From NCBI GenBank assembly GCA_964518305.1, contig CAZFDK010000005.1:8826-72825 (forward strand): DNA of 64,000 nucleotides, in the 5' to 3' direction. The DNA comes from an uncultured Gemmatimonadota bacterium (GTDB taxonomy: Bacteria > Gemmatimonadota > Gemmatimonadetes > Palauibacterales > Palauibacteraceae). The position numbers and the translations under genes are program-made. How positions within the stretch are numbered: position 1 is the first letter of the stretch; each line of letters opens with the position of its first letter. The notes under the pieces are model-generated. The model was not told where the DNA came from and searched no databases. It saw only the letters and a list, made by a program, of their open reading frames with translations. Below are positions 23,380 through 58,367 of the stretch, piece after piece.

Positions 23380-23475
23380 GGGCCGATCTCTCCTGTGGTC
23401 GGGCTGCACGCTCGTGCTGCGGGCCGCCGGCCGGTCGGCCGGCGCTCGTGTCGAATCGATCCTAGGATTCAAAAG

Positions 23476-39460: not shown

Positions 39461-39468
39461 GGTCAGGA

Positions 39469-39816: not shown

Positions 39817-40052
39817 GGAGGGCCGGGCAGGGGGACACGTCGAGGCCCGGCAGGGAATCCTGCACCGCGCGGAGGCCCGCCGGGCCAGAGGCTCGACCGC
39901 AAGCTACCGTCGGGACGGTGGGGAGACTGTCGGGAGATGGGCAGGAGCGCGGGGCGGGAGAAGCGGAGCCGCGATGTGGGGAAACCTCCCACCCTTGTAG
40001 CGGGCGCCCCCGAGCCGTCCTGCAGCTCGGGCCTCGTCCATGCCCCGGGACG

Positions 40053-40625
40053 TTACATCGAGGAGCCCGCCGTGTCGGACATGGCACCGTGAGGGGCCGT
40101 GCTGGTGCCGCTGTCCGCCGCCGAGCCGTGCAGCTCCGTGGCGTCGGAGGAGCCCATGCCGGCGCGCTGCATGGCGCTGTCGGCCGCCGCGGTGTTGCCC
40201 AGGGCTCGATGGGCCATGAAGACGCCGAACCAGGCGGCACGGACGTCCGGGTGCTCAGAGGTCAGGGACTCGAACTGCTCGAGGGCGGCGCGGTAGTTCC
40301 CGGCACGGTACGCCGCGTTGCCGCTGTCAAGGGCGGACTGAATCTCCGGCGGAAGGTTCGAGCGCGGTGACGCGCCGTTCCCTTCCCGCATGCCCATGCC
40401 ACTCGCTCCGGGCGGGGTCTGACGGCGCGAGTTCCGGACGCTGTCCACCGCCTCGTTGAGCCCGCGTCCACCGATGGAGAAGCGGCTCTCGCCGCTCCCA
40501 GCCCCGTTTCCGCCGCTTTCGCCGCCGCACCCGGCGACGACGGGCAGGAGGGCCACGAGCAGGGCCACCGTCATGGCCGCTACGCGCGGTCGCGCGCCGT
40601 CGAACGCCTCTCTGGCGCGCCCCAT
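40053..40625 (-). CDS. Lipoprotein with a TPR-like helical repeat
   Basis: Lipobox '…MTVALLVALLPVVAGCGG'. 'ALDSGNAAYRAGNYRAALEQFESLTSEHPDVRAAWFGVFMAHRALGNTAAADSAMQRA' is a TPR-like pair. Lies downstream of the cytochrome cluster on the same strand. Confidence 0.55.
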   Translation of the reverse strand: MGRAREAFDGARPRVAAMTVALLVALLPVVAGCGGESGGNGAGSGESRFSIGGRGLNEAVDSVRNSRRQTPPGASGMGMREGNGASPRSNLPPEIQSALDSGNAAYRAGNYRAALEQFESLTSEHPDVRAAWFGVFMAHRALGNTAAADSAMQRAGMGSSDATELHGSAADSGTSTAPHGAMSDTAGSSM

Positions 40626-40627
40626 CG

Positions 40628-42433
40628 TCACGAGCCACCTCCCAGGGGATCGGAGAGGTGGCAAGCGAGGCACACCTGCCGGTTACGGTCGGCGTACCGC
40701 TGGGCGTCGAAGTCCGGTCCGTGGGGGCTCACGCTGAACGCTCCCGTGGTCGAATGGCACTGGATGCAGTCTCTCTGTCGATGGCAACTGGCGCAGCTCT
40801 CGAGCGACTGGCGGGCCGCCTGACCGTGGCGCAGGAGCCAGAGGGGCTGGGCGTCGTGGAATCCCGGTCCGATGCGCCCGCTGCTCCCCATGCCGGTCTG
40901 CTGGTGACACTCCCGGCAGAACGCTCCCGTGCTGTGGCACGTGGAGCATTCCATGCGGTTCCCGTACGCCGCGGAGGCGTGACGGGCCATGAAGTTCTCC
41001 GGGTGGAAGCCGCCGGGCTCGCTCCGCGCCGCGGGGCCGGGCCACGGCGCCCCGTCCGAATCGGCCGACGAGCTCGTGTCCGCGGCCGTGGTGTCGGTGT
41101 GGGTCGTGTCCGCGGCCTGGGCCCGCGCGCCCGCCGTCGACCCCCCGGCGGCCGGGCCTCCCTCCGCGCCAGCCGTGGCGGCGGGCGAGGCGACCGCCGG
41201 AAGCTCCCGGCGCTGCCCGGCTTCACGGGCATCGGCCACACCGCCGGCGTGACAGTCGGTGCAGGAGGCCTCCGTGTGGCAGGAGGTGCAATTGCCGGGG
41301 TCGGCGGCTGCCAGGTCGCCGTGGGCCGTGGGGAAATCGGGCACGCGGTGCGAGGCCGGGGCGCGGCGCTCCACCGCGACCCCGGGGGCGTCCGTGCGAC
41401 GTCCGTCCGGCAGCCGGGCCACGGTGGAGGACGGCGCGTCGCGGTGGCAGGTCGTGCAGCTCTGCCGCGTGTGACAGGTGGAGCACTCGCCGGGTCGAGC
41501 CCGCTCGCCGTGGACGTCGAGCCATCCCTCCGACTCGTGTGTCTCCGGCGTCGGATAGCGGGCGGCGAGGTCGGGGAGTTCCATCCCGGCCGGTGCGGCG
41601 GGCATCGAGGCCACCGTCTCGCGCTCCGCCCCCTCCACGTGGCAGCTGGTGCAGCGCTCCTGAGTGTGGCAGGTCTGGCAGGTAGCCAGGGAGCGCTCCG
41701 CGGACTCGCCGTGAGTTTCGATCAGAAAGCCGCCCCGGTCGTGGTCGGCGGGTTCCGGCAGGGAGGCGATGCGACCGCGGTCGAATCCGGTCTCGGCCAG
41801 GGGACGGTGGCAGGTGGCGCAGCTGGCGTCCACGTAGTGCTTCGTCGCCTCGTGCTCGTGGCAGCTCAGGCACCGGTTCGGGACGGCCCGACCGGTGACG
41901 GCCATGCGTGTCGCCCCCGCCGGTGTGTGGCACGACTCGCAGGAGGCGGCCTCCTCTCCTTCCCGCTCCATCTCGGCGGCGTGGTCGGCGTGGTCGTAGA
42001 TCAGGTTGCCCGGCCGACGCTCCGGTCCCGACCACTCCACCCGCTCCGCCTGCTCGCCGTCGTGGCAGTTGGCACAGGACTCCGGATTCGGGTAGAAGGT
42101 CGCCGTGTCCCCCCGGCTGATGCCCCCGTGACAGCCCGTGCACAGCGCGAAGAGCCCGGCATGGTCCTCGTGCGGGAAGGCCTCCGAGGTGTCGGCGCTG
42201 ACCGTATCGGGCCCGCCGGCCCGGGCCGGCGGGCGCCTCTCCGTCCCACTCGGGGACGCCGCGGCCGCGGACGCTGCGTCGCTTCCGGCGTGCGCCACCG
42301 ATGCCACGAGGGCGGCGACCCCCAGCGCCAGAGCTCCGGCCGAGAGACGCACGGAGATTCGGTCCCGCACCTTCACCGGCGGCTCCCGTCCAGGGCTGGG
42401 TCGCCACCCAGGTCCAGGCGGAGAGTGCTCCAT
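40628..42433 (-). CDS. Large multiheme c-type cytochrome (~16 CxxCH motifs), secreted
   Basis: CxxCH: CTGCH, CANCH, CESCH, CLSCH, CATCH, CQTCH, CTSCH, CSTCH, CTTCH, CTSCH, CTDCH, CSTCH, CRECH, CASCH, CIQCH, CLACH. Signal peptide '…RISVRLSAGALALGVAALVASVAHA'. ATG start at 42433 (60-nt overlap with the porin gene); an alternative GTG at 42376 overlaps the porin stop as GTGA. Confidence 0.85.
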   Translation of the reverse strand: MEHSPPGPGWRPSPGREPPVKVRDRISVRLSAGALALGVAALVASVAHAGSDAASAAAASPSGTERRPPARAGGPDTVSADTSEAFPHEDHAGLFALCTGCHGGISRGDTATFYPNPESCANCHDGEQAERVEWSGPERRPGNLIYDHADHAAEMEREGEEAASCESCHTPAGATRMAVTGRAVPNRCLSCHEHEATKHYVDASCATCHRPLAETGFDRGRIASLPEPADHDRGGFLIETHGESAERSLATCQTCHTQERCTSCHVEGAERETVASMPAAPAGMELPDLAARYPTPETHESEGWLDVHGERARPGECSTCHTRQSCTTCHRDAPSSTVARLPDGRRTDAPGVAVERRAPASHRVPDFPTAHGDLAAADPGNCTSCHTEASCTDCHAGGVADAREAGQRRELPAVASPAATAGAEGGPAAGGSTAGARAQAADTTHTDTTAADTSSSADSDGAPWPGPAARSEPGGFHPENFMARHASAAYGNRMECSTCHSTGAFCRECHQQTGMGSSGRIGPGFHDAQPLWLLRHGQAARQSLESCASCHRQRDCIQCHSTTGAFSVSPHGPDFDAQRYADRNRQVCLACHLSDPLGGGS

Positions 42434-43908
42434 CCGCGGAGCTGGTTCCAGTCGACGGCGCTCGGGCGGTTGTCGAAGTACTGTCGGTACATCGAGACGC
42501 CCGTGTCCAGCCGCACGTCGTCCAGGGGACGGATCTCCAGCGACGCGGTGCCCCCGGCCAGCATGCCCTCTCCGATGCGGTACTCCTCGATCTGCTGACT
42601 CGCCGTCAGGCTCATCCGCAGCGCCACCAGGTCGAAGGGCTGCCACCGTCCGCCCAGCTCGCCGGAGCTGAGAAAGGCCCCGGCTCCCCGCTCGACCCGG
42701 TAGCGGCCGCGGAGCCGGAGATCCGCGGTCGGCGACCACTGTCCGGAGGCGGAGGCGAACCACGCGTTGTCCTCCACGGGGCCCAGGCTGGGCTCCGTAT
42801 CGGTGTCATCGTAAGTCCGTGCACCGCCGCTGATCTCCAGGCCGAGCTCCGGCGTGACCGACCAGGAGGCGCCGAGCTGCCCTTCGTGATAGGCCACCGG
42901 GCTGAACAAGCCCCATATGGTCCAGAGCTCGAAATACGGCATGTAGCGGCGCCCGCGTGCCTCGAGGACCAGGTCACCGGTCACCGGCACCCTGGCCGAG
43001 AGCCGAGACTTGCCGATTTTGCCCCGGGCGAAGTCGTAGTCCATGGAGCCCGTGAGGCGGATCGGATTCAGGAGGGACGTCCGGCCGTCCAGCGAGGCCC
43101 TCTCCGAGAGCAGCGCGGCCCGATTGGACAGGATCTCCCTCTGGTAGCGGGCCGTGAGCGAGCTCCCGGCTCCGGCTTCCGCGGTGGCGGCGCCCCCGAT
43201 GAGCCAGGCCTCCCTGTCCGGCAGGAAATCCTCCACGCCCTGCAGGGCGTCGTTCCGCGGATCGTGCAGTCCGCGGGCGAGGCTCCGGCCGCCGTAGACT
43301 TCGAGCGAGAAGCCGCCCAGGGGCTCCGCCATGACGCTGGCCCCGTCGTAGCTGGCGAACCCCAGGCCGGCGCGCGTGCGCTGGCGCCCGAGTCGCACGC
43401 GCAGGTTCGGGCGATTGTACTGGGCGTACGCGACGATGGCGTCGAACGAGTCGTCGCTCTGGGGCCAGGTGAAGTCGCCCCCCACGTCCTGCCTGCCCCG
43501 CACGTGAACCGTCGCCGAGAGACCCTCCAGCCCGAAGCCCCAGGCGGTGAACCGGAGGTCCTGGGTGGTGTGGAGCGCGTGCTCGGTAGGGGTGGAGCGA
43601 TAGAAGGTGCACCGGCCGGCGGTGCACGTCACCGGCCGCCCCTGGTAGGAGAGTCCGCCCCCGGGAAGCTCCGTCACCTGGCTTCGCGCCACCGTGTCCT
43701 GGACGATGGGCCGTACCTCCACGGTCCGGGCCGTGGCCCAGGCCTGCCCCCGGAAGTCCTGCGCGTCCGCGGCTCCGGGGAGTAGTGAAAGCGCCAGCAC
43801 CGCCAGGAGCAGGGAGGGTGCGGCCGACCGCGGCGTCGCCGTCGACCCGGTCGTGGCGCGAGGATGGCCGTCCGGGGGCAAGTGGCGGTCGGCGGAGTGT
43901 GCTGTCAC
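42373..43908 (-). CDS. Outer-membrane beta-barrel protein, candidate porin of a porin-cytochrome (MtrB/OmbB/PioB-like) complex
   Basis: 511 aa. Signal peptide (…LLLAVLALSLLPGAADAQD). Long alternating beta-strand sequence rich in G/S/T/Y/R with C-terminal aromatic strands. Embedded between multiheme cytochrome genes with 4-nt overlaps. Confidence 0.65.
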   Translation of the reverse strand: MTAHSADRHLPPDGHPRATTGSTATPRSAAPSLLLAVLALSLLPGAADAQDFRGQAWATARTVEVRPIVQDTVARSQVTELPGGGLSYQGRPVTCTAGRCTFYRSTPTEHALHTTQDLRFTAWGFGLEGLSATVHVRGRQDVGGDFTWPQSDDSFDAIVAYAQYNRPNLRVRLGRQRTRAGLGFASYDGASVMAEPLGGFSLEVYGGRSLARGLHDPRNDALQGVEDFLPDREAWLIGGAATAEAGAGSSLTARYQREILSNRAALLSERASLDGRTSLLNPIRLTGSMDYDFARGKIGKSRLSARVPVTGDLVLEARGRRYMPYFELWTIWGLFSPVAYHEGQLGASWSVTPELGLEISGGARTYDDTDTEPSLGPVEDNAWFASASGQWSPTADLRLRGRYRVERGAGAFLSSGELGGRWQPFDLVALRMSLTASQQIEEYRIGEGMLAGGTASLEIRPLDDVRLDTGVSMYRQYFDNRPSAVDWNQLRGWSTLRLDLGGDPALDGSRR

Positions 43909-44645
43909 GGCGTGTCACCTCCTTCGACCGGCGGCATCAGGTGACAGCGGGCGCATCGCTCGCGGGGCCGGTGGTCCGCCTGGTCCTGGTGGCAGGCGAG
44001 ACAGACGTTCCGCGGGCTACGGTCCATCGTTCTCGTGTTCACCGGCAGGGAGGTGGCCTCGTGGCAGCCGCTGCCAGTGCAGGTGGCGTGGACGGCGAGC
44101 GTGTGGCTCTCCTCCGGGGCTTCCCGGTGACAGGATGCGCAGTCGACCTCGGCTCCGTGGTGCTCCTCGTGGCACCCGGTGCACTGGACCGAGGCGGCCG
44201 AGAGCTCCGTCCCCCCTGTATGGCACTCGGCGCACTCGATGCTCTCGTGCGATGCGTGGCCGAAGGGGAGATCCCTTCCGCGAACCGTGTCCACGGACAT
44301 CGGCAGGTCCCTGGTCACCGGGTACGATCCCGCCGCCTCGAGCTCCGAGCGCTCGTGGCAGTTCGCGCAGGGCTCGGCGGTGGATCCGGAGTGGTGGCAG
44401 GAGCGGCATCCGCGGATCGAGGTGACCGTGAGCGTGCCGTGCCCCTCCTCGGTGGAGTGGCAGTCCGTGCACGCCACGTCCGTGTGCCCGGCGTGCCGGA
44501 AGGGAACCGTGTCCCCGTCGGCGACGAACGTCGTATCGCCGGCACCTGCGTCCTCCTGGGCCGCGGCGGTGCCCGGGAGGAGCGCCGCCGCAGCGAGGAC
44601 GGTCAGGAGATAGGGGAGCGCCCCCCCGCTTCCGAAATGACGCAC
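43905..44645 (-). CDS. Periplasmic multiheme c-type cytochrome (8 CxxCH; OmaB/MtrA-like position)
   Basis: Signal peptide MRHFGSGGALPYLLTVLAAAALLPGTAAAQ. CTDCH, CRSCH, CANCH, CAECH, CTGCH, CASCH, CLACH, CARCH. 246 aa, ~1 heme per 28 aa. Confidence 0.85.
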   Translation of the reverse strand: MRHFGSGGALPYLLTVLAAAALLPGTAAAQEDAGAGDTTFVADGDTVPFRHAGHTDVACTDCHSTEEGHGTLTVTSIRGCRSCHHSGSTAEPCANCHERSELEAAGSYPVTRDLPMSVDTVRGRDLPFGHASHESIECAECHTGGTELSAASVQCTGCHEEHHGAEVDCASCHREAPEESHTLAVHATCTGSGCHEATSLPVNTRTMDRSPRNVCLACHQDQADHRPRERCARCHLMPPVEGGDTP

Positions 44646-44670: not shown

Positions 44671-46245
44671 TTACTGGGAGCTGCTGACGTTTACGGTGGG
44701 GGGAGCCTCCATCTGGGGCTCGAGGCTCAGGTTCACACCCAGCCCGTACTGCTCGTTCACCGCGGTGATGGACGCCCGGAGCAGCGCCTCCAGCAGGAAG
44801 GGGTTGTGGACGCCGTTGCCGCTTCCCTTGTGGGAGCCGAAGTGGGTGGGGTTCGATCCCACGGTGAAGTCACCCCACTGCAGCCGGTCGTCGGTGTGAG
44901 CCACCTGCGCGTTCCACAGCGCGCCCTCCGCGATTGTGAAGGTGCTGTCGGCCGGGTTGATCTCGGCCTCGCCCGAGTCGGCCAGCACCTGCGTCAGGAG
45001 CCCGGAGTCGTCCTCCTCGAGGACGTGGTCGCCGTCGGTGTCCGTCCACAGCTGGTCCATGAGGTCGTTGATCCTGTTCTTCGACGTCACGAACAGGTTG
45101 CGTGCCGTCTCGGCGGAGCCGTGGCAGCCGCTCGTCGCGCACGCGTCAAAGCTCTGCTCCTGGATCGTGCAGTCCTCCTTGGGCAGACCCTGGTCGTCCA
45201 GGCAGGGCGTGGCCTCGAAGGTGTGGCCCACGGCCTCGACCTGGAAGTTGCCCTCTTCGTCTGTGATGGTGCGCTGCGCGACGTGGCAGGTGGCGCAGAG
45301 CTCGGGGTTGCCCTCGGAGCCGTGCGACGAAGCGAAGGTCCCGCTCAGGTCCGTGTTCGGGGGAATCCAGCCGACGTCCTCGCCGATTACCAGGTTGCCC
45401 TGGAAGGCGTGCGGGCCGTGCAGGTTCGGCGACGTCAGGCCCGGCGTGCCGCGCCGCGAGTGGCAGCGCACGCAGAGGTTCTCCTCGCTCGGAACGTCGA
45501 TCGGTGCCCGGAGCTGCGCGACATTGTCAGAGCCGTGCGGGTCGTGGCAGGTGGCGCAGGTGATGGACGAGAGCTGATCATCGTCCTTGCCGGCGAAGTT
45601 GGCGTCCACGCCGAACTGGTTCTGCATGGCGGCCTCGCCCTCGTGGCAGTCCAGGCAGGAGCCGCTGACGAAGCCGAAGTCCTTCACGGAGGCGATGCCG
45701 TGGGCGGACTGGGCCCACTGGTTGGTGAAGGGATGGTGGGCGCCGGAGTGGCACTCACCGCAGCCGGTCTCGAGATCCACACCGGCCTGAATGCTGGCCA
45801 GGGGCTGGTTGCCATCCGGGTTCTCGACGTGGCTCTGGCCGGGCCCGTGGCAGGATTCGCACTGGACGTCGTGGTAGCGCTCGGAGTCGACGCCATCGTA
45901 GCCGGCCGCGCCTTCGAAGGAGTTGCCCCGCTCGTTGACGGTGTGGCAGCCCTCGCAGAAGTCCTGCACGCCGTCGCTCTGCTGCAGACCTTCCCATGCC
46001 CCGGCGTGTCCGGACCCCTCCCACTGGCTCTGGGTGCCGGAGTGACAGTTGCCGCAGACGGTGACCTTGGCGTCCTGCTGGCTGTAACCCAGGAAGCCCT
46101 CGGCCGCGGAGGCGGGCTGCTCGAAGAGGGGACGTTCCTGGAAGACGACCTTCTCGTCCACGCAGCCGGTCACCGCGAAGGCCGCGGTCAGCGGGAGGAG
46201 AAGCAGGGCGACTTTCAGGGTTCGCTTTGCGTTCTCCGGAGTCAT
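44671..46245 (-). CDS. Lipoprotein multiheme c-type cytochrome (OmcB-like outer-membrane cytochrome candidate)
   Basis: Start at internal ATG 46245 (MTPENAKRTLKVALLLLPLTAAFAVTGC = lipoprotein signal) with SD GGAGGGAG. CxxCH: CGNCH, CEGCH, CESCH, CGECH, CLDCH, CATCH, CVRCH, CATCH, plus CATSGCH (Cx4CH). Confidence 0.85.
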   Translation of the reverse strand: MTPENAKRTLKVALLLLPLTAAFAVTGCVDEKVVFQERPLFEQPASAAEGFLGYSQQDAKVTVCGNCHSGTQSQWEGSGHAGAWEGLQQSDGVQDFCEGCHTVNERGNSFEGAAGYDGVDSERYHDVQCESCHGPGQSHVENPDGNQPLASIQAGVDLETGCGECHSGAHHPFTNQWAQSAHGIASVKDFGFVSGSCLDCHEGEAAMQNQFGVDANFAGKDDDQLSSITCATCHDPHGSDNVAQLRAPIDVPSEENLCVRCHSRRGTPGLTSPNLHGPHAFQGNLVIGEDVGWIPPNTDLSGTFASSHGSEGNPELCATCHVAQRTITDEEGNFQVEAVGHTFEATPCLDDQGLPKEDCTIQEQSFDACATSGCHGSAETARNLFVTSKNRINDLMDQLWTDTDGDHVLEEDDSGLLTQVLADSGEAEINPADSTFTIAEGALWNAQVAHTDDRLQWGDFTVGSNPTHFGSHKGSGNGVHNPFLLEALLRASITAVNEQYGLGVNLSLEPQMEAPPTVNVSSSQ

Positions 46246-46798
46246 GACCTGCTCCCTCCTCTGTATTCCGTCTCGCGGCGTCCCGTACGGTGTCGCGTCC
46301 GGAACGCCCTCTCTCCCTCCTGGCCACCGTGCGCAGGGTACCGGAACCGCGACCCGACGGACACGATCCCGGCTCACAGTGTGGGCGGAAGCGAAGCTAA
46401 GCAAGCCCTCTGTCCTGCTTCAACCGACTCCCGTCGCGCCGGCCGGAACGGAGGCTACCTCGCGCTCCCGTCGCCGGGAGCCGGCCGGAACCCTGCGCGC
46501 CACCAACGATAGCCCGATCGGCGCGCGTGTCATGTCGGGAGCCCCCGGTGCGGGTTCGTGGGAAGACTCCCCACGTCGACGAAGGCCCTTGCCGGACCCC
46601 CACCGTCCGCTGAGGGGAGGCTTCCCACACGCCTGCGGCGGATTACACCACACCTGCCTCCGTGCGGGCCCCGACAGACGCTTTACGTCGACGTCTCTAG
46701 CTTGCGGTGCGAGCTTGAGGACGGGCCGGATCCGACGCCCGGCGCGCCCCCCGAGCGGCGCGAGCCGCCGGAACGTCCATCATCCCCGGGAGGCACCG

Positions 46799-47983
46799 AT
46801 GTTCGTCCCCAACGAGTACGGCTGGAAGAAGGACGAGACCCTGGCCGAGAACCTGGAGCGCCAGGGCATCAACCGCCGGGAGTTCCTGACATACTGCGGA
46901 GAGATGGGCGTGGTCCTCGGGGTCGGGAGCGCCATGGGGCCCACCATCATGCAGTCCCTCTCCGACCAGCAGCGGCCCAGCGTCATCTGGCTTCAGCTGC
47001 AGGAGTGCACGGGATGCGTGGAGAGCGTCCTCCGCACGGAGTCACCGACCATCGGGGACCTGATCCTGAACAAGCTGTCGCTGGACTATCAGCACACCCT
47101 GATGGCAGCCGCCGGACACCGGGCCGAGGAGGTTCTCCAGCGGACCATGGAGGAGAAGGAGGGAGAGTACCTCCTCGTGGTCACCGGATCGGTGCCGATG
47201 AACGACGGCGGCGTCTACACCACCGTGGGAGGGCGGACTGCACACGACGTGCTCGTGGAGGCCGCCGACGGTGCCGCCGGTGTGATCGCCGTGGGCGCTT
47301 GCGCCCATTACGGAAGCGTCCAGGCCGCTGATCCCAACCCCACGGGCGCCGTCCGGACGGACGAGATCGTCACCGACCAGCCCGTGGTGAACATCGCCGG
47401 GTGTCCGCCGATCGCGGACACCGTCACGGCAACGCTGGTCCACTACCTGACCTTCGGGAGCATGCCGAGCCTCGACGGGGAGGGGCGGCCAGAGTTCGCC
47501 TACGGGGCACGGATCCACGACCAGTGTCCGAAGCGCGCCAACTACGACGCCGGGCAGTTCGTCCAGGAGTTCGACGACGAGGGGGCCCGACGGGGCTGGT
47601 GCCTGTACGAGGTCGGGTGCAAGGGGCCCGCGACCTTCTCGCCGTGCCCCATCTTCCAGTGGAACTCCGGCACGGACTGGCCCATCGGGGCCGGTCACCC
47701 GTGCATCGGATGCACGGAGCCGCACTTCTGGGACTCGATGACCCCGTTCTACGAGAGGCTTCCCGGCGTGGCCGGATTCGGGGTCGAGCGCACGGCCGAC
47801 GAGATCGGCCTCGGCCTGGCCGTCGGAGCCGCCGCGGGCGTCGGAGCTCACGCGGTCGCTACGGGCGTGCAACGCGTGCGTGATAAGAGAAAGGGACGAG
47901 AGCTGCCGGTGGCGGACGAAGACGGCGGTGAGAGCTCGCCCGGAGCCGAGGGTGGCGAATCGAACGCGGAACAGAGGGAGTGA
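46799..47983 (+). CDS. hyaA: [NiFe]-hydrogenase small subunit, Tat-exported, with C-terminal membrane anchor (group 1-like uptake hydrogenase)
   Basis: Twin-arginine signal 'INRREFLTYCGEMGVVLGVGSAMG'. Fe-S cluster Cys motifs (ECTGC…, GCPP…, CPIFQW…HPCIGC). C-terminal hydrophobic helix. Confidence 0.92.
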   Translation: MFVPNEYGWKKDETLAENLERQGINRREFLTYCGEMGVVLGVGSAMGPTIMQSLSDQQRPSVIWLQLQECTGCVESVLRTESPTIGDLILNKLSLDYQHTLMAAAGHRAEEVLQRTMEEKEGEYLLVVTGSVPMNDGGVYTTVGGRTAHDVLVEAADGAAGVIAVGACAHYGSVQAADPNPTGAVRTDEIVTDQPVVNIAGCPPIADTVTATLVHYLTFGSMPSLDGEGRPEFAYGARIHDQCPKRANYDAGQFVQEFDDEGARRGWCLYEVGCKGPATFSPCPIFQWNSGTDWPIGAGHPCIGCTEPHFWDSMTPFYERLPGVAGFGVERTADEIGLGLAVGAAAGVGAHAVATGVQRVRDKRKGRELPVADEDGGESSPGAEGGESNAEQRE

Positions 47984-47986
47984 CCC

Positions 47987-49825
47987 ATGCCGAACCGAGT
48001 CGTCGTCGACCCGATCACCCGAATCGAGGGGCATCTCCGGATCGAGGCCCAGGAGGAGAACGGGCGGATCCAGGACGCCTGGGCTTCGTCCACCCAGTTC
48101 CGCGGCATCGAGACCATCATGGAGGGGCGGGACCCGCGTGACGCCTGGGCGTTCACCCAGCGGATCTGCGGGGTGTGCACCGTGGTGCACGCCATCGCCT
48201 CCCTCCGCGCCGTGGAGGACGCCCTCGACATACGGATCCCGCCGAACGCCAACCTGATCCGGAACATCGTCCACGGCATCCAGACCATCCAGGACCACGT
48301 GATCCACTTCTATCACCTCCACGCCCTGGACTGGGTGGACGTGATGAGCGCCCTCGAGGCCGATCCGGCGGCGGCAGCCGACCTGGCCGGAAAGGTGTCG
48401 CCCTGGCCGAAGCACTCCCGCAACTACTTTCGCGAGATCAAGGGGCGCCTGGAGACGTTCGCGGAGAGCGGACAGCTGGGGATCTTCGCGAACGCCTACT
48501 GGGGGCACGACGCCTACAAGCTGCCCCCGGCCGCCAACCTCATGGCCGTGGCCCACTACCTGGAGGCGCTGGACTGGCAGCGGGATGTCATTCGGATCCA
48601 CACGATCTTCGGGGGCAAGAACCCGCACCCGAACTTCGTGGTGGGCGGGATGGCTTCTGCCATCAACCTGGACGACACGGCCACCATCAACGCCGAGAGC
48701 CTCACGGACATTCACGACATGATCGGCCGCGCCCGGCGCTTCGTGGAGCAGGTGTACTGGCCCGACCTGCTGACCATCGCCTCCTTCTACAAGGAGTGGG
48801 CCGCGATCGGTGACGGGGTGCCCAACTACCTGGCCTGCGGCGAGTTTCCCGAGAACGACGTCCGGGACATCGACTCGCTCTACTTTCCCCGGGGCATCGT
48901 CCTCGACAACGACCTGTCCACGGTGCACGAGTACGACCCCTCTCTGGTGAAGGAGTATGTGGACAGCTCCTGGTACAGCTACGAGGACGGTCCGGGCACG
49001 GGGCTCCACCCATACGACGGCGAGACGACGCCGAACTACACGGGGCCGGAACCGCCCTACGACTACCTGCAGGACGAGGAGAAATACACCTGGATGAAGG
49101 CTCCCCGCTACGAGGGGCGGCCCATGGAGGTCGGCCCGCTGGCGAGGATGCTCGTCGGGTACGCCTCCGGCCACGAGGACATCCAGGACGTCGTCGACGA
49201 CGCCCTCGGTCGGCTGGACGTCGGTCCCGAGGCCCTGTTCTCCACCCTGGGCCGGACGGCTGCGCGCGGTGCCGAGACCGTGCTCCTCGCCCGGAAGATG
49301 GAGGACTGGTACGACCGGCTGGTGCAGCGCATCCGGGGCGGCGACACCCGGACCTTCAACGGCGAGAAGTGGGAGCCGGACACGTGGCCGGAGTCGGCCC
49401 GCGGGTACGGCTACTGTGACGCCGCCCGCGGATCGCTGGGCCACTGGGTACGGATCGAGAACCAGGAGATCTCCCGCTACCAGTGCGTGGTCCCCAGCAC
49501 CTGGAACTGCTCCCCGCGAGACGCCGAGGGGCAGATGGGCCCCTACGAGGCCTCGCTGGTGGACAATCATCCCCTGGCCGATGCCGAGGAGCCGGTGGAG
49601 CTGCTGCGCACGATCCACTCCTTCGACCCCTGCATGGCCTGCGGCGCCCACGTCCTGGACGACCGCGGGAACGTGGTCACCAAGGTGCGGGTGGACCACG
49701 GCACCGGCCTGGGCTTCGGGAGTCCCCCGGACGTGCCCGAGGACGATGTCGGGCGGCCGTCGGACGACGACGCTACCCCGGCCGCGGCCACGCCGGACGC
49801 CTCGGAGGGGGGAGGTGGGTCGTGA
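47987..49825 (+). CDS. hyaB: [NiFe]-hydrogenase large subunit
   Basis: N-terminal 'RIEGH' and 'RICGVCT' Ni-Fe ligands. C-terminal 'DPCMACGAH' followed by a cleavable extension (VLDDRGNVV…). Confidence 0.95.
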   Translation: MPNRVVVDPITRIEGHLRIEAQEENGRIQDAWASSTQFRGIETIMEGRDPRDAWAFTQRICGVCTVVHAIASLRAVEDALDIRIPPNANLIRNIVHGIQTIQDHVIHFYHLHALDWVDVMSALEADPAAAADLAGKVSPWPKHSRNYFREIKGRLETFAESGQLGIFANAYWGHDAYKLPPAANLMAVAHYLEALDWQRDVIRIHTIFGGKNPHPNFVVGGMASAINLDDTATINAESLTDIHDMIGRARRFVEQVYWPDLLTIASFYKEWAAIGDGVPNYLACGEFPENDVRDIDSLYFPRGIVLDNDLSTVHEYDPSLVKEYVDSSWYSYEDGPGTGLHPYDGETTPNYTGPEPPYDYLQDEEKYTWMKAPRYEGRPMEVGPLARMLVGYASGHEDIQDVVDDALGRLDVGPEALFSTLGRTAARGAETVLLARKMEDWYDRLVQRIRGGDTRTFNGEKWEPDTWPESARGYGYCDAARGSLGHWVRIENQEISRYQCVVPSTWNCSPRDAEGQMGPYEASLVDNHPLADAEEPVELLRTIHSFDPCMACGAHVLDDRGNVVTKVRVDHGTGLGFGSPPDVPEDDVGRPSDDDATPAAATPDASEGGGGS

Positions 49826-50601
49826 CTGCTCAGCGGCAGCAGGAGGAAGCCGGCCGTCGCGCCACGCACGAGCCCGAGCGGACGGAGCAGCCCGGCCTGG
49901 GCCCCATCCCCCGTCCGCCGGAGGGCGATTACGAGTGGGTCTACCTGTGGCACTGGCCGATCCGCGCCATGCACTGGGTGGCCGCCGTGGCCATCGTGGC
50001 CCTCGTCGTCACGGGATTCTACATCGGAGCGCCCTATTTCATGACCACCGGCGAGCCGGCGAACCAGTACCTGATGGGGTGGATGCGATTCGTCCACTTC
50101 GCGGCCGCAGGCCTGCTGGTGGCCACCGGGATCGTGCGGGCCTACTGGCTCTTCGTCGGCAACAAGTTCGAGAGCTGGCGAGCCCTGTTCCCGTTCCGGC
50201 GGGAGGACTGGGCCAACATGTGGAAGATCGTGAAGCACTACATGCTGATCGGGGAGGAGGAGCCGGAGTACATGGGCCACAATCCGGTCCAGCAGATTTC
50301 CTATACCGGCCTGTACGCCGTGACCGTCGTGATGGTGCTCACAGGCTTCGCCATGTACGGCCAGTCGAATCCCGACGGCTTCTTCTACGCCACCTTCTCC
50401 TGGGTCAACGGGCTCCTGGGCGGCGTGCAGTACACCCGCTTCGTGCATCACGTCCTGACCTGGGTCTTTCTCATCTTCATTCCGATTCACGTCTACCTGA
50501 CCATCCGGGCCGAGATCACGGAATCCACCGGCACGGTCTCGTCCATGGTGAGCGGCGGGCGGTTCCTGCCGCGGGGCGAGGAGTTCGTCGATGAGGAGTG
50601 A
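49822..50601 (+). CDS. hyaC: Ni/Fe-hydrogenase b-type cytochrome subunit
   Basis: GTG start overlapping the hyaB stop (GTGA). Four TM helices with conserved His (…WHWPIRAMHWV…FVHFAAAG…VHHVLTW…). Confidence 0.85.
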   Translation: MTAQRQQEEAGRRATHEPERTEQPGLGPIPRPPEGDYEWVYLWHWPIRAMHWVAAVAIVALVVTGFYIGAPYFMTTGEPANQYLMGWMRFVHFAAAGLLVATGIVRAYWLFVGNKFESWRALFPFRREDWANMWKIVKHYMLIGEEEPEYMGHNPVQQISYTGLYAVTVVMVLTGFAMYGQSNPDGFFYATFSWVNGLLGGVQYTRFVHHVLTWVFLIFIPIHVYLTIRAEITESTGTVSSMVSGGRFLPRGEEFVDEE

Positions 50602-51184
50602 TCGCCCCGGAGAGGCCGGAGCGAGGCGCCGGCCCCGCCCCGGGGGAGCTCCGCCCGGGACGGGAGCACGGGTCGTCGTCATCGGCCTGGGGAACCCGCT
50701 CCTGGCGGACGACGGGGTCGGGCTGGCCGCGCTGGCGCGCCTCCGGGAGGAGTGGAGCCTCCCTTCCGACGTGGAGCTGCTGGACGGAGGCACGTGGGGA
50801 ATGATGCTCCTGCCCGCCGTGGAGGACGCCGACCGCCTGCTCCTGCTGGACGCCATCGACGTGGACGAGGAGCCCGGCGCCACGGTCGTCCTGGAGCGGG
50901 ACGAGCTGCCCCTCTTCCTCGACGGCAAGGTCTCCACGCATCAGGTGGGCATCCGGGAGGTCCTGGCCCTCGCGTCGCTTCGGGGGACCCTCCCGGAGGA
51001 GACGGTGGCCGTGGGCCTGCAGCCCGCCGAGGTGACCACCGAGACCGCCCTCAGCCCGGAGGCGGTGGCCGGCCTGGACGACCTGGTCGTCCGAGCCGTG
51101 GAGCGCCTCAGGGGTTGGGGGGTCGGTGCCGAGCACCAGGCCTCCGGGGGCGAGAGCACGCTGGCCGAGCCCGGCCGGGCCTGA
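50591..51184 (+). CDS. hyaD: Hydrogenase maturation endopeptidase (HyaD/HybD family)
   Basis: 'VVVIGLGNPLLADDGVGLAA…LLDGGTWGMMLL…LLLLDAID' = HycI/HyaD protease motifs. Confidence 0.85.
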   Translation: MRSDRPGEAGARRRPRPGGAPPGTGARVVVIGLGNPLLADDGVGLAALARLREEWSLPSDVELLDGGTWGMMLLPAVEDADRLLLLDAIDVDEEPGATVVLERDELPLFLDGKVSTHQVGIREVLALASLRGTLPEETVAVGLQPAEVTTETALSPEAVAGLDDLVVRAVERLRGWGVGAEHQASGGESTLAEPGRA

Positions 51185-51228: not shown

Positions 51229-51666
51229 GTGCACGAGATGAGTCTCGCCATGGAGGTGGGGCGAATGGCCGCCGAGCAGGTGGACCGGGAGGCCCTGCCC
51301 CGCGTCTCGGCCGTCGGCGTGGAGGTGGGCGACCGGGCGGGCGTGGTGGTCGATGCCCTGGAGTTCTGCCTCGAGGCCGTGCTCACCGAGCCCCCCTTCG
51401 ATGAGGCCCGTCCGGTGGTGGAGCGCTGCCGGGGCGACGTCCTCCGGCTGTCGTGGATCGACGTGGAGGAGGAAGAGGACGGGAGAGTGGAGGACGACCG
51501 GAGCGACGGCGAAGCGGCGCTGGATCGAGCCGCGGCCGGCACGACGGGCGGAAGGAGCGGGCCGAGCCCGCTGGGGGATGCGCCGCTCCCCTCCGAGGCC
51601 GGTCCGCCGCCCGGCGCCGGAGACGGAAGCAGAGCAGACTCGAACGAACGGGAAGGTGTCCGATGA
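51229..51666 (+). CDS. hypA: HypA-like hydrogenase Ni-insertion protein, atypical (lacks the Zn-finger cysteines)
   Basis: GTG start giving 'MHEMSLAMEVGRMAAEQV…', where the MHE N-terminus is the HypA Ni-binding motif. The C-terminal half is acidic/low-complexity (…DVEEEEDGRVEDDRSDGE…) with no CxxC…CxxC pair. Confidence 0.55.
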   Translation: MHEMSLAMEVGRMAAEQVDREALPRVSAVGVEVGDRAGVVVDALEFCLEAVLTEPPFDEARPVVERCRGDVLRLSWIDVEEEEDGRVEDDRSDGEAALDRAAAGTTGGRSGPSPLGDAPLPSEAGPPPGAGDGSRADSNEREGVR

Positions 51667-52355
51667 CGGTCCGCCGCATTCAGGTGCGCGAGAAAGTGAT
51701 GAAGAAAAACGACGAGCTGGCGGCCGACGTGCGGAGCCGGCTCACCGATTCGGGAGTGATCACCTACAACCTGGTCTCCTCGCCGGGGTCCGGGAAGACG
51801 GCCCTCCTGGAGGGCACGCTGGAGCGGCTGGACGCCGAGTTCCCCATCGCCGTCGTCACCGGAGACGTGCAGACGGAGAACGACGCGAACCGAATCGCGC
51901 GCCTCACGCCGCGGCTCGTGCAGGCCGTGGTCACCGACGGGGCGTGCCACCTGGACGCCCGGCAGGTCTCCGAGGCCCTGGACGCCGTGGACCTGGACGA
52001 GACGCGTCTCCTGTTCATCGAGAACGTGGGCAACCTGGTCTGTCCCGCGAGCTGGGACCTGGGCGAGCAGGACAAGGTCGTGCTGTTCTCGGTGACGGAG
52101 GGCGAGGACAAGCCGGTCAAGTACCCGAAGATGTTCCGGCTCGCCAGCTATGCGGTGATCACGAAGATGGACCTGCTCCCGCACCTGGACTTCGACGTCG
52201 ACCGGGCGGTGGAGCACGCCCGCGAGATCAATCCCGACCTCCGCTTCTTCTTCACCTCGGCCCGTAGCGGCGAGGGCATGGAGGAGTGGTGCGACTTCCT
52301 CCGATCCGAGGTCGGGACCGGGGAGTTCGCCCGAGCGTCGCTGGGCACCGACTAG
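51663..52355 (+). CDS. hypB: Hydrogenase nickel incorporation GTPase HypB
   Basis: Internal ATG 51663 of the 300-aa track ORF. G1 'SSPGSGKTALL', CH motif region '…GACHLDA…', G3 'FIENVGNLVCP'. No His-rich N-terminal tract. Confidence 0.88.
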   Translation: MTVRRIQVREKVMKKNDELAADVRSRLTDSGVITYNLVSSPGSGKTALLEGTLERLDAEFPIAVVTGDVQTENDANRIARLTPRLVQAVVTDGACHLDARQVSEALDAVDLDETRLLFIENVGNLVCPASWDLGEQDKVVLFSVTEGEDKPVKYPKMFRLASYAVITKMDLLPHLDFDVDRAVEHAREINPDLRFFFTSARSGEGMEEWCDFLRSEVGTGEFARASLGTD

Positions 52356-52378
52356 GAAAAGAGAAGAGGAGCGAGAAT

Positions 52379-52705
52379 ATGTGTCTGGGCGTGCCGGGCA
52401 GGGTGGTCGAGGTGAAGGGCGACGTCGCCGTCGTGGACTTCTGGGGCGTTCGGCGCGAGACGCGGCTCGACGTGGTCGACGAGCCGGTGTCGCCGGGCGA
52501 CTACATCCTCAACCACGTGGGCTTCGCGATCCGCAAGATCCCGGAGTCCGAGATCGGAGAGACGCTGGCCCTGTACAGCGAGCTGCTGGAGGAGGCCGGA
52601 GAGGACATGATGGCCGAGGACGTGCGCGACGAAATCGAGCAGGCGAGCATGCCCTCGTCGGATCCCGAGCCGGGCGTGCCGTCCGGCCTGGAGGGAAGCC
52701 GATGA
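52379..52705 (+). CDS. hypC: Hydrogenase assembly chaperone HypC/HupF
   Basis: Begins 'MCLGVPGRVVEV' (essential Cys2); ~108 aa. Confidence 0.88.
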   Translation: MCLGVPGRVVEVKGDVAVVDFWGVRRETRLDVVDEPVSPGDYILNHVGFAIRKIPESEIGETLALYSELLEEAGEDMMAEDVRDEIEQASMPSSDPEPGVPSGLEGSR

Positions 52706-53883
52706 GCGACGCGGTCGGAGGGCCCACGCCTGCCGCTCCCCCCGCGCCGGGCCCCACCGGCGGCGCCGGCGAGTCGGTGGGGGAGCTCAAGTTTCGTGAT
52801 CCCGAGAAGGCGCAGGCCCTGTCGGAGGCCCTCGAGCGGGTGGTGGGCGAGGTGGACCGGGACTCGGTCTCGGTCATGCACGTGTGCGGGAGCCACGAGC
52901 AGTCCATCGCCAAGTACGGCATCCGGACCATCCTCCCGGAGGCGCTGGACGTGATCATGGGGCCGGGCTGCCCGGTCTGCGTCACCGACATGCCCGAGGT
53001 GGACGAGGCCGTGGCGCTGGCCCGGCAGGGCGTCCGGGTCGCCACCTACGGCGACATGCTGCAGGTGCCGGGGACGGTGTCCTCCCTGGCCGACGCCCAG
53101 GCCGGCGGAGCCGAGGTGGACGTGGTGTACAGCGCCTCCCAGGCCGTGGAGCTGGCGCGGGAGACCGACGACGAGGTGGTCTTCTTCGCCAGCGGCTTCG
53201 AGACCACCGCCGTGGCCACCGCCGCCGTGGTGCTGGACGACCCGCCGGACAACTTCTCGGTGCTCTCGGCGCACAAGTACATCCCGCCGGTCATGGAGAT
53301 CGTGGCCGAGATGCCCCACACCCGGGTGGAGGGTTACCTGGCCGCGGGGCACGCCGCCACGATCACCGGCTCCGGCCTCTTCGAGCGCTTCGTGGACCGT
53401 CACCGCATCCCGGTGGCCGTGGCCGGATTCGAGCCCCTGGACGTGCTGGCCGGCCTGGTCCAGCTCGTGGAGCTCGTTCGGGACGGGGAGCCCCGCGTCG
53501 TGAACATGTATCCGCGGTGCGTCACCGAGGAGGGGAACCGGAACGCCCAGGAGCAGCTGTGGGAGGTGTTCCGCACCACGGGCGGCAAGTGGCGGGGCAT
53601 CGCTCACGTCCCCAACGGCAACCTGCGGATCCGGGACGAGTATGCGGGCGTCGACGCCCGCCGGCGCTTCGACATCGACGTCGGCGCGCTCCGGCGCGGC
53701 TCCCCGACCCCCCTGACGCAGGCCTGCATCTGCGGTGACATCATGGCCGGCCGATCCTCGCCCCACGATTGCCCGCTCTTCGGCGAGGAGTGCACGCCGG
53801 AGAATCCGGTGGGCGCCTGCATGGTGAGCAGCGAGGGCACCTGCAAGATCTGGCACCAGTACGGAGGACATCCCGACCTATGA
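52702..53883 (+). CDS. hypD: Hydrogenase formation protein HypD
   Basis: Conserved 'CGSHEQ', 'GPGCPVCV', and C-terminal 'CxCGDIMAG…CPLFGEECTPENPVGACMVSSEGTC' Fe-S motifs. ATGA overlaps at both ends. Confidence 0.92.
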   Translation: MSDAVGGPTPAAPPAPGPTGGAGESVGELKFRDPEKAQALSEALERVVGEVDRDSVSVMHVCGSHEQSIAKYGIRTILPEALDVIMGPGCPVCVTDMPEVDEAVALARQGVRVATYGDMLQVPGTVSSLADAQAGGAEVDVVYSASQAVELARETDDEVVFFASGFETTAVATAAVVLDDPPDNFSVLSAHKYIPPVMEIVAEMPHTRVEGYLAAGHAATITGSGLFERFVDRHRIPVAVAGFEPLDVLAGLVQLVELVRDGEPRVVNMYPRCVTEEGNRNAQEQLWEVFRTTGGKWRGIAHVPNGNLRIRDEYAGVDARRRFDIDVGALRRGSPTPLTQACICGDIMAGRSSPHDCPLFGEECTPENPVGACMVSSEGTCKIWHQYGGHPDL

Positions 53884-54953
53884 GCGAGGCCGCGCGGAGG
53901 AACGGACGGGAAGCGGGAGGCCCGACGACGGCCGTCGAGAAGGTCACCCTCAAGCACGGCGCCGGGGGCGGCGCCATGCGTCAGTTGATCGAGGAGTCGC
54001 TGGCGGCGGGCTTCCTGGACGAGCGCGACGGCGAGGTCGGGCTCTCCGCCATGGACGACGGGGCCGCCTTCGGGCTGCCCGACGGCCGCTGGCTCGTCCT
54101 GACCACCGACTCCCACGTCATCCATCCCTACCGCTTCCCCGGCGGAGACATCGGCCGCCTCGCGGTGGCCGGGACGGTGAACGATCTGGCCATGATGGGT
54201 GCTGCCGAGCCGCTGGGGCTCACCTCGGCGATGGTCGTGGAGGAGGGCCTGCCCCGGGACGAGCTCGAGGAGATTCAGTCTTCGATGCGGGCTACCTGCC
54301 GGGAGGCGGGAACCCGCGTCGTCACGGGCGACACCAAGGTCATGGGCCGCGGCGAGATCGACGGGATCGTGATCAACACCACGGGCGTGGGGTTCGCCGA
54401 TCCGCTGGTCCGGGATTCCGGCCTCCGGCCCGGGGACCGCGTCATCCTCACTGGGGAGATCGGTGATCACGGAATCGCCCTCATGGCGCTCCGCCACGAG
54501 CTGGACCTCCGGGGTGACCTGGTCTCGGACGTGGCCCCGCTCAACGGTCTGGTGGGACGGGCTCTCGGGGCCGCCGACGGCGGCATTACGGCCCTCAAGG
54601 ACCCGACCCGCGGCGGCGTGGCCAGCGCCCTGCACGAGATGGCGGAGAAGGCCGGCGTCTCGGTCGTGGTGCAGGAGCGGGCCGTCCCCGTCTCCGACGT
54701 GGTACGGTCGGCGGCCGAGATGCTGGGCCTGGACCCCTTCCACATCGCCAACGAGGGGAAGGCCCTGCTGGGCGTGCGCCCGGGATCGGCGCAGGCGGTG
54801 CTGGAGGCCATCCGGGAGCATCCGGCCGGCGGTCGCGCCGCCATCGTCGGTGAGGTCTCGGACGATCATCCCGGCCGGGTCGTACTGGACACCGGAATCG
54901 GGCGGCGACTGGTGACGGAGCCGCAGGGCGAGCCCCTGCCCCGGATCTGCTGA
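53880..54953 (+). CDS. hypE: Hydrogenase maturation carbamoyl dehydratase HypE
   Basis: AIR-synthase-like fold. Ends with the diagnostic C-terminal 'PRIC' (reactive Cys). Confidence 0.92.
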   Translation: MSEAARRNGREAGGPTTAVEKVTLKHGAGGGAMRQLIEESLAAGFLDERDGEVGLSAMDDGAAFGLPDGRWLVLTTDSHVIHPYRFPGGDIGRLAVAGTVNDLAMMGAAEPLGLTSAMVVEEGLPRDELEEIQSSMRATCREAGTRVVTGDTKVMGRGEIDGIVINTTGVGFADPLVRDSGLRPGDRVILTGEIGDHGIALMALRHELDLRGDLVSDVAPLNGLVGRALGAADGGITALKDPTRGGVASALHEMAEKAGVSVVVQERAVPVSDVVRSAAEMLGLDPFHIANEGKALLGVRPGSAQAVLEAIREHPAGGRAAIVGEVSDDHPGRVVLDTGIGRRLVTEPQGEPLPRIC

Positions 54954-55750: not shown

Positions 55751-55767
55751 CGGCGGCCGCGGACGGC

Positions 55768-57275: not shown

Positions 57276-58232
57276 TCAGACGGCCAGTCCCGCGGCGAAG
57301 AGAGTCGCGTACGCGACGGCGAGCTGTCCCGCCTGCGGCGTGAGAGGCAGGAGATGCTTCCAGCGGTCGGCCCTCCTGACTCTCCGGAAGATCACGACGG
57401 CGTACGGAGCCGTCAGCAGGGGGAGGAGCACGGCGACGTCGTGACCGGAGCGCGGCACGAACCAGACGGGAACGGCGTACGCCAGGGCCGTGAGGACGCC
57501 CATCTCCACCTCCGTCCAGTCCCGGCCGATGATCACGGCCAGCGTCCGCTCCCCCTTCTCGCGATCGAAGCGAAGATCACGGATGTTGTCGATGAGGAGG
57601 ATGTTCGTGATCAGCGCGGCCATGGGCAGGCCGGCGGCCACCGACTCCAGCGTCAGCGCGTCTCCGGGTACGCCCGTCGGGAAACCCGTCGCCAGGTTCG
57701 ACGCGGCCTGGACGTAGTAGGTGCCGGAGACCGAGACGATGCCGAAGAATAGGAAGAAGAGCGGGTCGCCGAGTCCGCGGTCGCCGAGCCGGAGCGGATC
57801 GGACGAGTACGCCAGGCTGGCGCCGGCGCTGACGACCCCGAGGGCGAGCGCCGGCAGGCCACCGATCCGGACCAGGTAGGCGCCCGGGACCGCCGCCAGC
57901 AGGTAGCATCCGGCGGTGGCCCGGGCCAGGAGACGGAGGTCGACGACGCCCGCCTCCAGGGCACGGACCAGGAGCGGGTGCTCACGATCGTCGGGATGGC
58001 GGCGGAGGTTGTGGTAGTTGTCCGCGATCACTCCGCCGAGCTGGATCAGCCATCCGGCGGCCAGGGCCGCGGTCGCTGCCCACGGGGCGAAGACGCCGTC
58101 GTGGAGGGCGAGGCCCGCGGCCACGACGACCGGTGCCAGCGCGGTGGGAAGAGTGTGGCGCGGATAGACGAGCATCCGCACCCAGACGTCGCGCCGGGTG
58201 GGGACCTCGGTTGACGGGGAGGGGGCCGACAT
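57276..58232 (-). CDS. UbiA-family aromatic prenyltransferase (MenA-like)
   Basis: 318 aa, 8-9 TM. Asp-rich motif region 'IADNYHNLRRHPDDREHP' and second motif '…DNIRDLRFDREKGERT' consistent with UbiA/MenA. Confidence 0.65.
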   Translation of the reverse strand: MSAPSPSTEVPTRRDVWVRMLVYPRHTLPTALAPVVVAAGLALHDGVFAPWAATAALAAGWLIQLGGVIADNYHNLRRHPDDREHPLLVRALEAGVVDLRLLARATAGCYLLAAVPGAYLVRIGGLPALALGVVSAGASLAYSSDPLRLGDRGLGDPLFFLFFGIVSVSGTYYVQAASNLATGFPTGVPGDALTLESVAAGLPMAALITNILLIDNIRDLRFDREKGERTLAVIIGRDWTEVEMGVLTALAYAVPVWFVPRSGHDVAVLLPLLTAPYAVVIFRRVRRADRWKHLLPLTPQAGQLAVAYATLFAAGLAV

Positions 58233-58367
58233 GCAGGGGTTTCTCGTGGTCGGGGACGGAACCGACGGGGTCGAAGCTGGATATCATGTGGAGAGACTCC
58301 GCGGGACGCCAGCGTTCGTGCCGGCTACCGTGGATTGGTCAGGTCAGCGCGGGAGGAGAGAGTAGCG

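Follow-up and report, generated by a model that had tools for sequence, protein, structure and literature searches.

The locus analysed here raises the question of why a membrane-bound [NiFe] hydrogenase operon and the operon of a candidate outer-membrane cytochrome conduit, which are read in opposite directions, should start on either side of a long spacer, and whether that spacer ties the two systems together. Both lie in a 64,000-nucleotide (nt) stretch of contig CAZFDK010000005.1 from an uncultured Gemmatimonadota bacterium of the order Palauibacterales (the window: the whole stretch that was analysed, to which all coordinates refer unless a related locus is named). The reading that we prefer, at a probability of roughly 60%, is that the spacer holds two separate promoter-plus-leader units, that the hydrogenase belongs to a wider energy-metabolism regulon, and that the hydrogenase block was inserted beside the conduit operon in one Palauibacterales subclade.

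The divergent spacer occupies 46246..46798 (553 nt), between the start codon of a multiheme lipoprotein cytochrome on the reverse strand and that of the hydrogenase small subunit on the forward strand, and has about twice the length seen in related loci, whose divergent spacers measure 215-320 nt. The initial annotation of this DNA had described it as a GC-rich, non-coding gap of ~550 nt. Its length and non-coding nature hold, with a GC content by codon position that is flat (0.68-0.73 in every frame, compared with 0.67/0.47/0.90 in the flanking genes) and jumps sharply to 0.63/0.37/0.97 at the annotated start of the small subunit; its overall GC content of 71.1%, on the other hand, is no richer than the window mean of 71.2%. 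A single open frame (46244..47983) crosses the whole spacer into the small subunit and could mislead gene callers; it is a high-GC artefact. The flat codon-position GC, together with insertions and deletions among relatives that are not multiples of three, led us to reject both a longer N-terminus for the small subunit and a small open reading frame (ORF) inside the spacer.

The anatomy of the spacer was read from an alignment of seven loci, comprising the window and six related Palauibacterales loci (L001, L016, L017, L026, L027 and L028), in which conservation falls in discrete blocks. From the cytochrome gene towards the hydrogenase these are:

46246..46393, reverse strand: putative cytochrome-operon 5' leader, including the ribosome-binding site GGAGGGAG (46259..46252) and a conserved GAGACGG (46274..46268), from alignments
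46394..46423, reverse strand: candidate sigma-70-like cytochrome promoter, -35 TTGAAG (46423..46418), N18, -10 TAGCTT (46399..46394), from the alignment
46424..46557, no strand: poorly conserved, indel-rich middle of ~135 nt, from the alignment
46558..46574, no strand: distal 17-bp palindrome GTGGGAAGACTCCCCAC, candidate operator, kept in 7/7 loci and enriched in the window
46612..46628, no strand: proximal 17-bp palindrome GAGGGGAGGCTTCCCAC, candidate operator, 44 nt upstream of GACAGA, from the alignment and module scans
46671..46703, forward strand: candidate hydrogenase promoter core, CCGACAGA (46671-46678), N19, TAGCTT (46698-46703), invariant in relatives

On the cytochrome side the promoter block is invariant in the seven loci as TTGAnn-N18-TAG[C/G]TT, ~150-180 nt upstream of the ATG, and counterparts stand before the same operon in two other loci (TTGACG-N16-TACGTT in L019 and TTGCGG-N18-TATAGG in L023). 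Judged from this candidate promoter, transcription would start near 46387 and give a cytochrome leader of ~140 nt. On the hydrogenase side the palindrome has the consensus GTGGGGA-N3-TCCCCAC, with the second copy 54 bp further upstream, and the palindromes are followed by a nearly invariant stretch that ends in CCCGACAGACGC (46670-46681). The hexamer 19 nt after GACAGA varies at its middle positions only (TAGCTT, TACGTT, TACCTT, TATCTT) and is for this reason read as a -10 element. Transcription of the hydrogenase would then begin near 46710 with a ~90-nt leader, and the two palindromes would be centred near -90 and -144.

The spacer can thus be described as two promoter-plus-leader units placed back to back without overlap, with ~135 nt of unconserved DNA between them, and it would be long because the two units adjoin rather than overlap. 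The cytochrome unit (~180 nt) would consist of a sigma-70-like promoter driving the conduit operon through its ~140-nt leader, and the hydrogenase unit (~240 nt) of an activator-type promoter with fixed geometry and a palindrome centre near -90.

The initial annotation had proposed a search for FNR, NtrC, HoxA and sigma-54 sites, and this led to none of the known regulators. No sigma-54 -24/-12 element (TGGCAC-N5-TTGCA) was found in 46200..46850 at up to three mismatches, the spacer has no TTG-N5-CAA (HupR) box, and FNR, CRP, Rex, DosR, NikR and Fur consensus boxes were absent at reasonable thresholds. In its outline the hydrogenase side nevertheless resembles activator-dependent hydrogenase promoters, with far-upstream palindromes, a weak or atypical -35 and a long leader. 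HoxA and HupR bind upstream sites near -150, and class I activation of the CRP type works from about -90. It departs from promoters of the HoxA, HupR and CRP types in lacking the sigma-54, TTG-N5-CAA, FNR and CRP consensus sequences, and in having a palindrome that is not specific to the hydrogenase.

This last point suggests that the hydrogenase belongs to a wider regulon, as the palindrome and the promoter core recur together at two further operons in the window with the same spacings:

Hydrogenase operon (described above), forward strand: palindrome, 44 nt, GACWGW (W, A or T) within the -35-like CCGACAGA, 19-nt gap, -10-like TAGCTT
39901..39992, reverse strand: V-type ATPase operon, palindrome 39976-39992, 44 nt, CCGACAGT, 19 nt, TAGCTT
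23473..23564, reverse strand: aconitase gene, palindrome 23548-23564, 44 nt, CCGACTGA, 19 nt, CAGCTT

The palindrome alone occurs in the window at two sites with at most one mismatch, compared with 0.037 expected, and at five sites with at most two mismatches, compared with 0.8 expected. The pattern CCGAC[AT]G[AT]-N19-[TC]AGCTT has three matches on both strands of the 64 kb where 0.0016 would be expected; all three point into an operon and carry the palindrome exactly 44 nt upstream, and a relaxed pattern matched the same three sites only, again each with the palindrome at 44 nt. Among the three copies the 44-nt and 19-nt fillers are unrelated, which rules out a mobile repeat. A terminator hairpin was also rejected as an account of the palindrome, given that no copy carries a T-run, that the two spacer copies follow no gene and that the distance to the -10-like element is fixed; two palindrome copies do sit just past gene ends. 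In ~150 kb of loci from other phyla the palindrome was not found.

The spacings of 44 and 19 nt are invariant at the hydrogenase and V-ATPase promoters of the six aligned relatives, with the V-ATPase module conserved in L001, L016 and L026. The hydrogenase operon of L024/L025 (77% small-subunit identity) has the same module and two palindromes, with 21 nt replacing the 44. At 11793-11860 of L022 a palindrome, 21 nt and CCGACAGA stand ahead of an unannotated gene of 151 amino acids (aa), so that use of the module extends past the three operons of the window. Since the V-ATPase operon and the aconitase gene have the module in common with the hydrogenase, the latter appears to be a member of an energy-metabolism regulon, within which it would most likely be switched by a hypothetical dimeric transcription factor. 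The regulator genes present in the window are only of the ArsR, TetR and LuxR types, far from the locus and unlinked to it. A bolder proposal, which we put forward tentatively, is that the fixed module (palindrome, N44 or N21, CCGACWGW, N19, TAnnTT) marks an undescribed Palauibacterales regulon, in which H2 uptake, the V-type ATPase, the tricarboxylic acid cycle and, in some lineages, the conduit would be co-switched by one regulator, possibly with an unusual sigma-factor geometry, and that insertion of the hydrogenase island would have created a pathway from H2 to an extracellular acceptor.

The third part of our reading, the insertion, comes from gene order. The divergent pairing of the window is found again in the six aligned relatives, with spacers of 551-607 nt, at least 79% identity in the cytochrome and at least 91% in the small subunit, and 7/7 loci of the subclade keep this arrangement although their nucleotide sequences have diverged by 13-18%. 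The order of the conduit genes is shared by L016, L017, L021, L023 and L026. Further away, the conduit operon of L019 and L020 (68%) and L023 (58%) has no hydrogenase beside it and faces a membrane-anchored NapC/NrfH-like multiheme cytochrome, and in L021 (2111-3820) a NapC/NrfH-like module is fused to the small periplasmic cytochrome within the operon. L022 has a lone lipoprotein cytochrome, with neither the rest of the cluster nor a NapC/NrfH-like neighbour. At the hydrogenase of L002 (64%) no cytochrome gene was found upstream, and L024/L025 (77%) are uninformative on the pairing as their contigs end within ~360 nt. The pairing is thus confined to a narrow clade. The counterpart of the NapC/NrfH-like gene in the window is:

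58368..59765, forward strand: NapC/NrfH-like membrane-anchored multiheme cytochrome, ATG at 58368, by Pfam and NCBIfam

This protein has 62% identity to the product of the L023 gene (8664-9785) and 60% to that of the L019 gene (3-365), and in the window its gene is separated from the conduit by 12 kb, on the far side of the hydrogenase block. The ~12-kb block in between holds the hydrogenase, the hyp genes, three ORFs and a MenA-like gene. Because the NapC-like orthologue normally faces the conduit operon in the more distant relatives, we infer that the hydrogenase block, with its own promoter, was inserted between the conduit operon and its putative quinol-oxidising NapC/NrfH-like partner in one Palauibacterales subclade.

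Several observations weigh against this combined reading. Only about four independent lineages stand behind the seven-locus footprint, and the insertion is read from gene order in five comparison loci rather than from a phylogeny. The promoter assignments draw on motif shape and conservation, and the GACAGA-N19 spacing to the -10 element misfits a canonical sigma-70 -35 (the cytochrome promoters have TTGnnn-N16-18). The palindrome consensus was derived in part from the sites that it describes. With one promoter on each side of them, the two palindromes could act on the cytochrome operon as well as on the hydrogenase, and the conduit may share the same regulon, given that the conduit operon of L021 itself has the module (spacings 43 and 21 nt, -10 TATATT). 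As to a functional link, hydrogenase and conduit are unlinked in most Gemmatimonadota, their promoters appear to differ in type, sequence fixes neither the direction of electron flow through the conduit nor the direction of catalysis by the hydrogenase, and the order has been described as facultatively aerobic with N-oxide respiration (PMC10469786).

The initial annotation had suggested that electrons from H2 enter the quinone pool and leave through the cytochromes. Such electrons would pass from H2 to menaquinone, on to the NapC-like cytochrome and out through the outer-membrane conduit, a plausible route which is chemically reasonable and which gene proximity in the subclade favours. The alternative that survives best, and which keeps a real if minority chance, is that the two operons are neighbours without functional significance, the hydrogenase feeding the quinone pool for respiration of O2, nitrate or N2O or for redox protection, and the conduit doing other work such as Fe(II) oxidation or electron uptake. 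Both systems are widespread in the Gemmatimonadota and usually occur apart, the described respiratory habit of the Palauibacterales would suit such a division, and in a survey of marine Gemmatimonadota HyaABCD was widespread, DFE_461-465-type cytochrome clusters were present, and iron reduction could not be told from iron oxidation for the cytochrome clusters (PMC11316326). A chance neighbourhood sits poorly, however, with its retention in all seven loci at the divergence given above, and with the exact placement of the block, which separates the conduit operon from its NapC-like partner.

Somewhat more doubtful is shared bidirectional control, in which one regulator bound to both palindromes would co-switch hydrogenase and conduit for H2-dependent extracellular electron transfer. 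The position of the palindromes between the promoters and their conservation in 7/7 paired loci speak for it, as do their occurrence before hydrogenase-free conduit operons (in L021, where the module is complete, and as an imperfect copy in L019), the grouping of hydrogenase, MenA-like gene, NapC-like cytochrome and conduit within ~20 kb, and the H2-linked metal respiration proposed for the order (PMC10469786). Yet in the window's clade the candidate cytochrome promoter is of a different type, its -35 standing 135 and 189 nt downstream of the palindromes rather than at the fixed 44 nt, the V-ATPase operon and the aconitase gene have the same module as the hydrogenase, conduit loci at ≤68% identity lack the pairing, and the L002 hydrogenase locus (64%) has no upstream cytochrome gene.

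It is very improbable that a small RNA, a small protein or a riboswitch-like leader is encoded here: the length of the spacer, a conserved, indel-free block of ~110 nt upstream of the hydrogenase and the open frame through the entire spacer would suit such an element, but the codon-position GC and the out-of-frame indels argue against a protein, the variable patches within the conserved block are contiguous and show no periodicity, and the RNA searches supported no such element. No Rfam family reached its gathering score in the window, and 46100..46950 gave only chance microRNA matches at E values up to 10, with scores far under the gathering thresholds. No terminator-like site was found in the spacer; RNAalifold gave compensatory change in 0/35 predicted pairs on the hydrogenase side and a weak consensus fold (-9 kcal/mol) on the cytochrome side. 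The initial annotation had expected shared regulatory elements and/or a small RNA in this region, of which the conserved, regulatory-looking blocks were borne out and a small RNA, riboswitch or terminator was not.

Hydrogenases of groups 1c and 1f and hyaABCD have been reported in Palauibacterales, for which hydrogen-driven metal respiration has been proposed (PMC10469786). No description of the physical pairing, the probable insertion into the conduit locus or the promoter module was found there or in PMC11316326, as searched with hydrogenase and cytochrome terms; the wider literature was sampled by keyword. We regard the promoter module as a modest new observation, with H2-driven extracellular electron transfer already suggested for the order. 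The Palauibacterales are abundant, uncultured bacteria of marine and saline-sediment habitats, and what has been said of their ecology comes only from gene lists; the public datasets SRR14300223 and ERZ10759785 carry the lineage of the window. Should the hydrogenase indeed feed the conduit, a cosmopolitan order of Gemmatimonadota would join the organisms capable of H2-driven reduction of metals or minerals, and the published ‘metallireducens’ idea would gain support. The recurrent module itself gives a concrete, testable starting point from which a regulon could be delimited in an organism without genetics.

The genes on the hydrogenase side of the spacer are as follows:

46799..47983, forward strand: [NiFe] hydrogenase small subunit, PF01058 and PF14720, TIGR00391 442 bits (cut-off 179.5)
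47987..49825, forward strand: [NiFe] hydrogenase large subunit, 612 aa, PF00374 768 bits over the full profile
49822..50601, forward strand: b-type cytochrome membrane subunit, PF01292, TIGR02125 192 bits (cut-off 121.5)
50591..51184, forward strand: HyaD/HybD-type maturation endopeptidase, PF01750, TIGR00072 131 bits (cut-off 47)
51229..54953, forward strand: hypA (short form), hypB, hypC, hypD and hypE in the same operon, by Pfam, with the same gene calls in L017

The small subunit starts with an ATG at 46799 preceded by the ribosome-binding site GGGAGG, and its stop codon ends at 47983. It carries a twin-arginine translocation (Tat) motif (NRREFLTY) 26 residues from the start and a C-terminal membrane anchor, and its proximal-cluster motif is the standard four-cysteine CTGC (in the sequence QECTGCVES, with HYGSVQAA). 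The translated large subunit contains the metal-binding motifs RICGVCTVVH and DPCMACGAH, and the GTG start of the cytochrome b gene overlaps the large-subunit stop. Tat export, the C-terminal anchor of the small subunit, cytochrome b and the four-cysteine proximal cluster together assign the product as a Tat-exported, cytochrome-b-anchored group 1 [NiFe] hydrogenase, predicted to face the periplasm and to reduce quinone. The initial annotation of a Tat-dependent HyaABC enzyme with b-type cytochrome and protease was confirmed by the Pfam, NCBIfam and PDB matches, and all the genes that it described are present where it placed them.

The closest solved structure to the large subunit is 3myr (3myr_B, E 9.5e-231), the Allochromatium vinosum enzyme of the 1e type, and all PDB relatives are group 1 enzymes. 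The operon of the 3myr enzyme has Isp1/Isp2 in place of cytochrome b. Subgroup 1d, which is oxygen-tolerant, is distinguished by a CxCC motif and a second extra cysteine; it was rejected for this small subunit, in which QECTGCVES and HYGSVQAA do not provide the six-cysteine proximal cluster. An exact look-up of the large-subunit sequence returned no match, and a metagenome scan with the small subunit returned only relatives at ~50% identity.

The gene content is standard and the operon an ordinary uptake hydrogenase operon, with the same order (small subunit, large subunit, cytochrome b, endopeptidase, then hyp) as Escherichia coli HyaABC(D), Cupriavidus necator HoxKGZ and Geobacter sulfurreducens Hya, and with the Tat signal and anchor of the small subunit and the RICGVC and DPCxxCxxH motifs of the large subunit that are common to group 1 uptake hydrogenases. 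It also differs from these operons. The large subunit has an unusually long, low-complexity tail of ~57 aa beyond DPCMACGAH (49655-49825); the tail is ~15 aa in L002 and L024, and the long form is kept across the subclade (a 611-aa protein in L017). HypA (51229-51666) matches its profile over the N-terminal nickel-binding half only, the CxxC pairs of the zinc site being missing, and ends in an acidic, proline-rich tail; HypA of L024 has 86 aa. Lastly, hypF is missing from this hydrogenase operon, and is present in L024.

On the other side of the spacer, the conduit operon runs on the reverse strand:

44671..46245, reverse strand: multiheme lipoprotein cytochrome, 524 aa, first gene of the operon, by translation, Pfam and haem count
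43905..44645, reverse strand: cytochrome of 246 aa with 8-9 haems, by Pfam and haem count
42373..43908, reverse strand: predicted outer-membrane beta-barrel, 511 aa, by AlphaFold and Foldseek
40628..~42376, reverse strand: 16-haem cytochrome, by Pfam and haem count
40053..40682, reverse strand: tetratricopeptide repeat (TPR) protein, by Pfam

The lipoprotein cytochrome starts with an ATG at 46245-46243, has an N-terminal lipoprotein signal (...AFAVTGC, lipobox AVTGC) and eight CXXCH haem motifs plus one variant, and matches the Pfam families Paired_CXXCH_1, Cytochrome_C7 and MtrC/MtrF domain II/IV. The 511-aa barrel, which has no Pfam or NCBIfam family match, was modelled with AlphaFold from 40 homologues (predicted local distance difference test, pLDDT, 80.6; predicted template modelling score, pTM, 0.72) as a nearly all-beta fold of ~26 strands. 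Foldseek with this model returned outer-membrane barrels only, with MtrB (6r2q_B) at rank 20 and template modelling (TM) scores of 0.3-0.47, low values that are expected because barrels differ in size. Membership of the Mtr family did not extend to the conduit proteins by profile (TIGR03508 57 and 33 bits, cut-off 192); only PF22113, at 34-36 bits, came out slightly over its cut-off of 30.

The extracellular electron transfer cytochrome cluster named in the initial annotation therefore has its parts in place (lipoprotein, 8-9-haem cytochrome, ~26-strand barrel, 16-haem cytochrome). This is the parts list of a porin-cytochrome conduit. As in Shewanella MtrCAB, Geobacter OmaB/OmbB/OmcB and the DFE_0461-0465-type cluster of Desulfovibrio ferrophilus, a large barrel is encoded together with two multiheme cytochromes, one a lipoprotein and the other small and periplasmic, and a NapC/NrfH-like membrane cytochrome is associated with the conduit as in known porin-cytochrome systems. 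The cluster differs from Mtr and Pcc conduits in its extra 16-haem cytochrome and TPR protein and in the absence of significant MtrA, MtrB or MtrC membership. Directly downstream of the conduit operon lies a complete V/A-type ATPase operon (32099-39903, reverse strand), an adjacency which is kept in L001, L016 and L026 and not in L021 and L023.

Past the hydrogenase operon, one further gene was assigned:

57276..58283, reverse strand: UbiA-family, MenA-like prenyltransferase, PF01040 65 bits (cut-off 34)

Against the MenA profiles this protein scores 98.6 bits with TIGR00751 (cut-off 102.15) and 195 with NF004751 (cut-off 264). The initial annotation had placed a MenA-like gene and a membrane multiheme cytochrome just downstream of the hydrogenase; both exist, at a distance of 6-7 kb past HyaD, after hypABCDE and three ORFs. 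Directly after hypE, formyltransferase-like and crotonase-like ORFs (54953-56616) form a pair which is kept in L017. A formyltransferase and a crotonase are the domain pair of HypX. A split HypX was rejected for these two ORFs, which most resemble PurN and generic enoyl-CoA hydratases, with no HypX among the PDB matches. Directly after the NapC-like cytochrome follows a beta-propeller protein with YVTN / cytochrome D1-like repeats (59647-61110).

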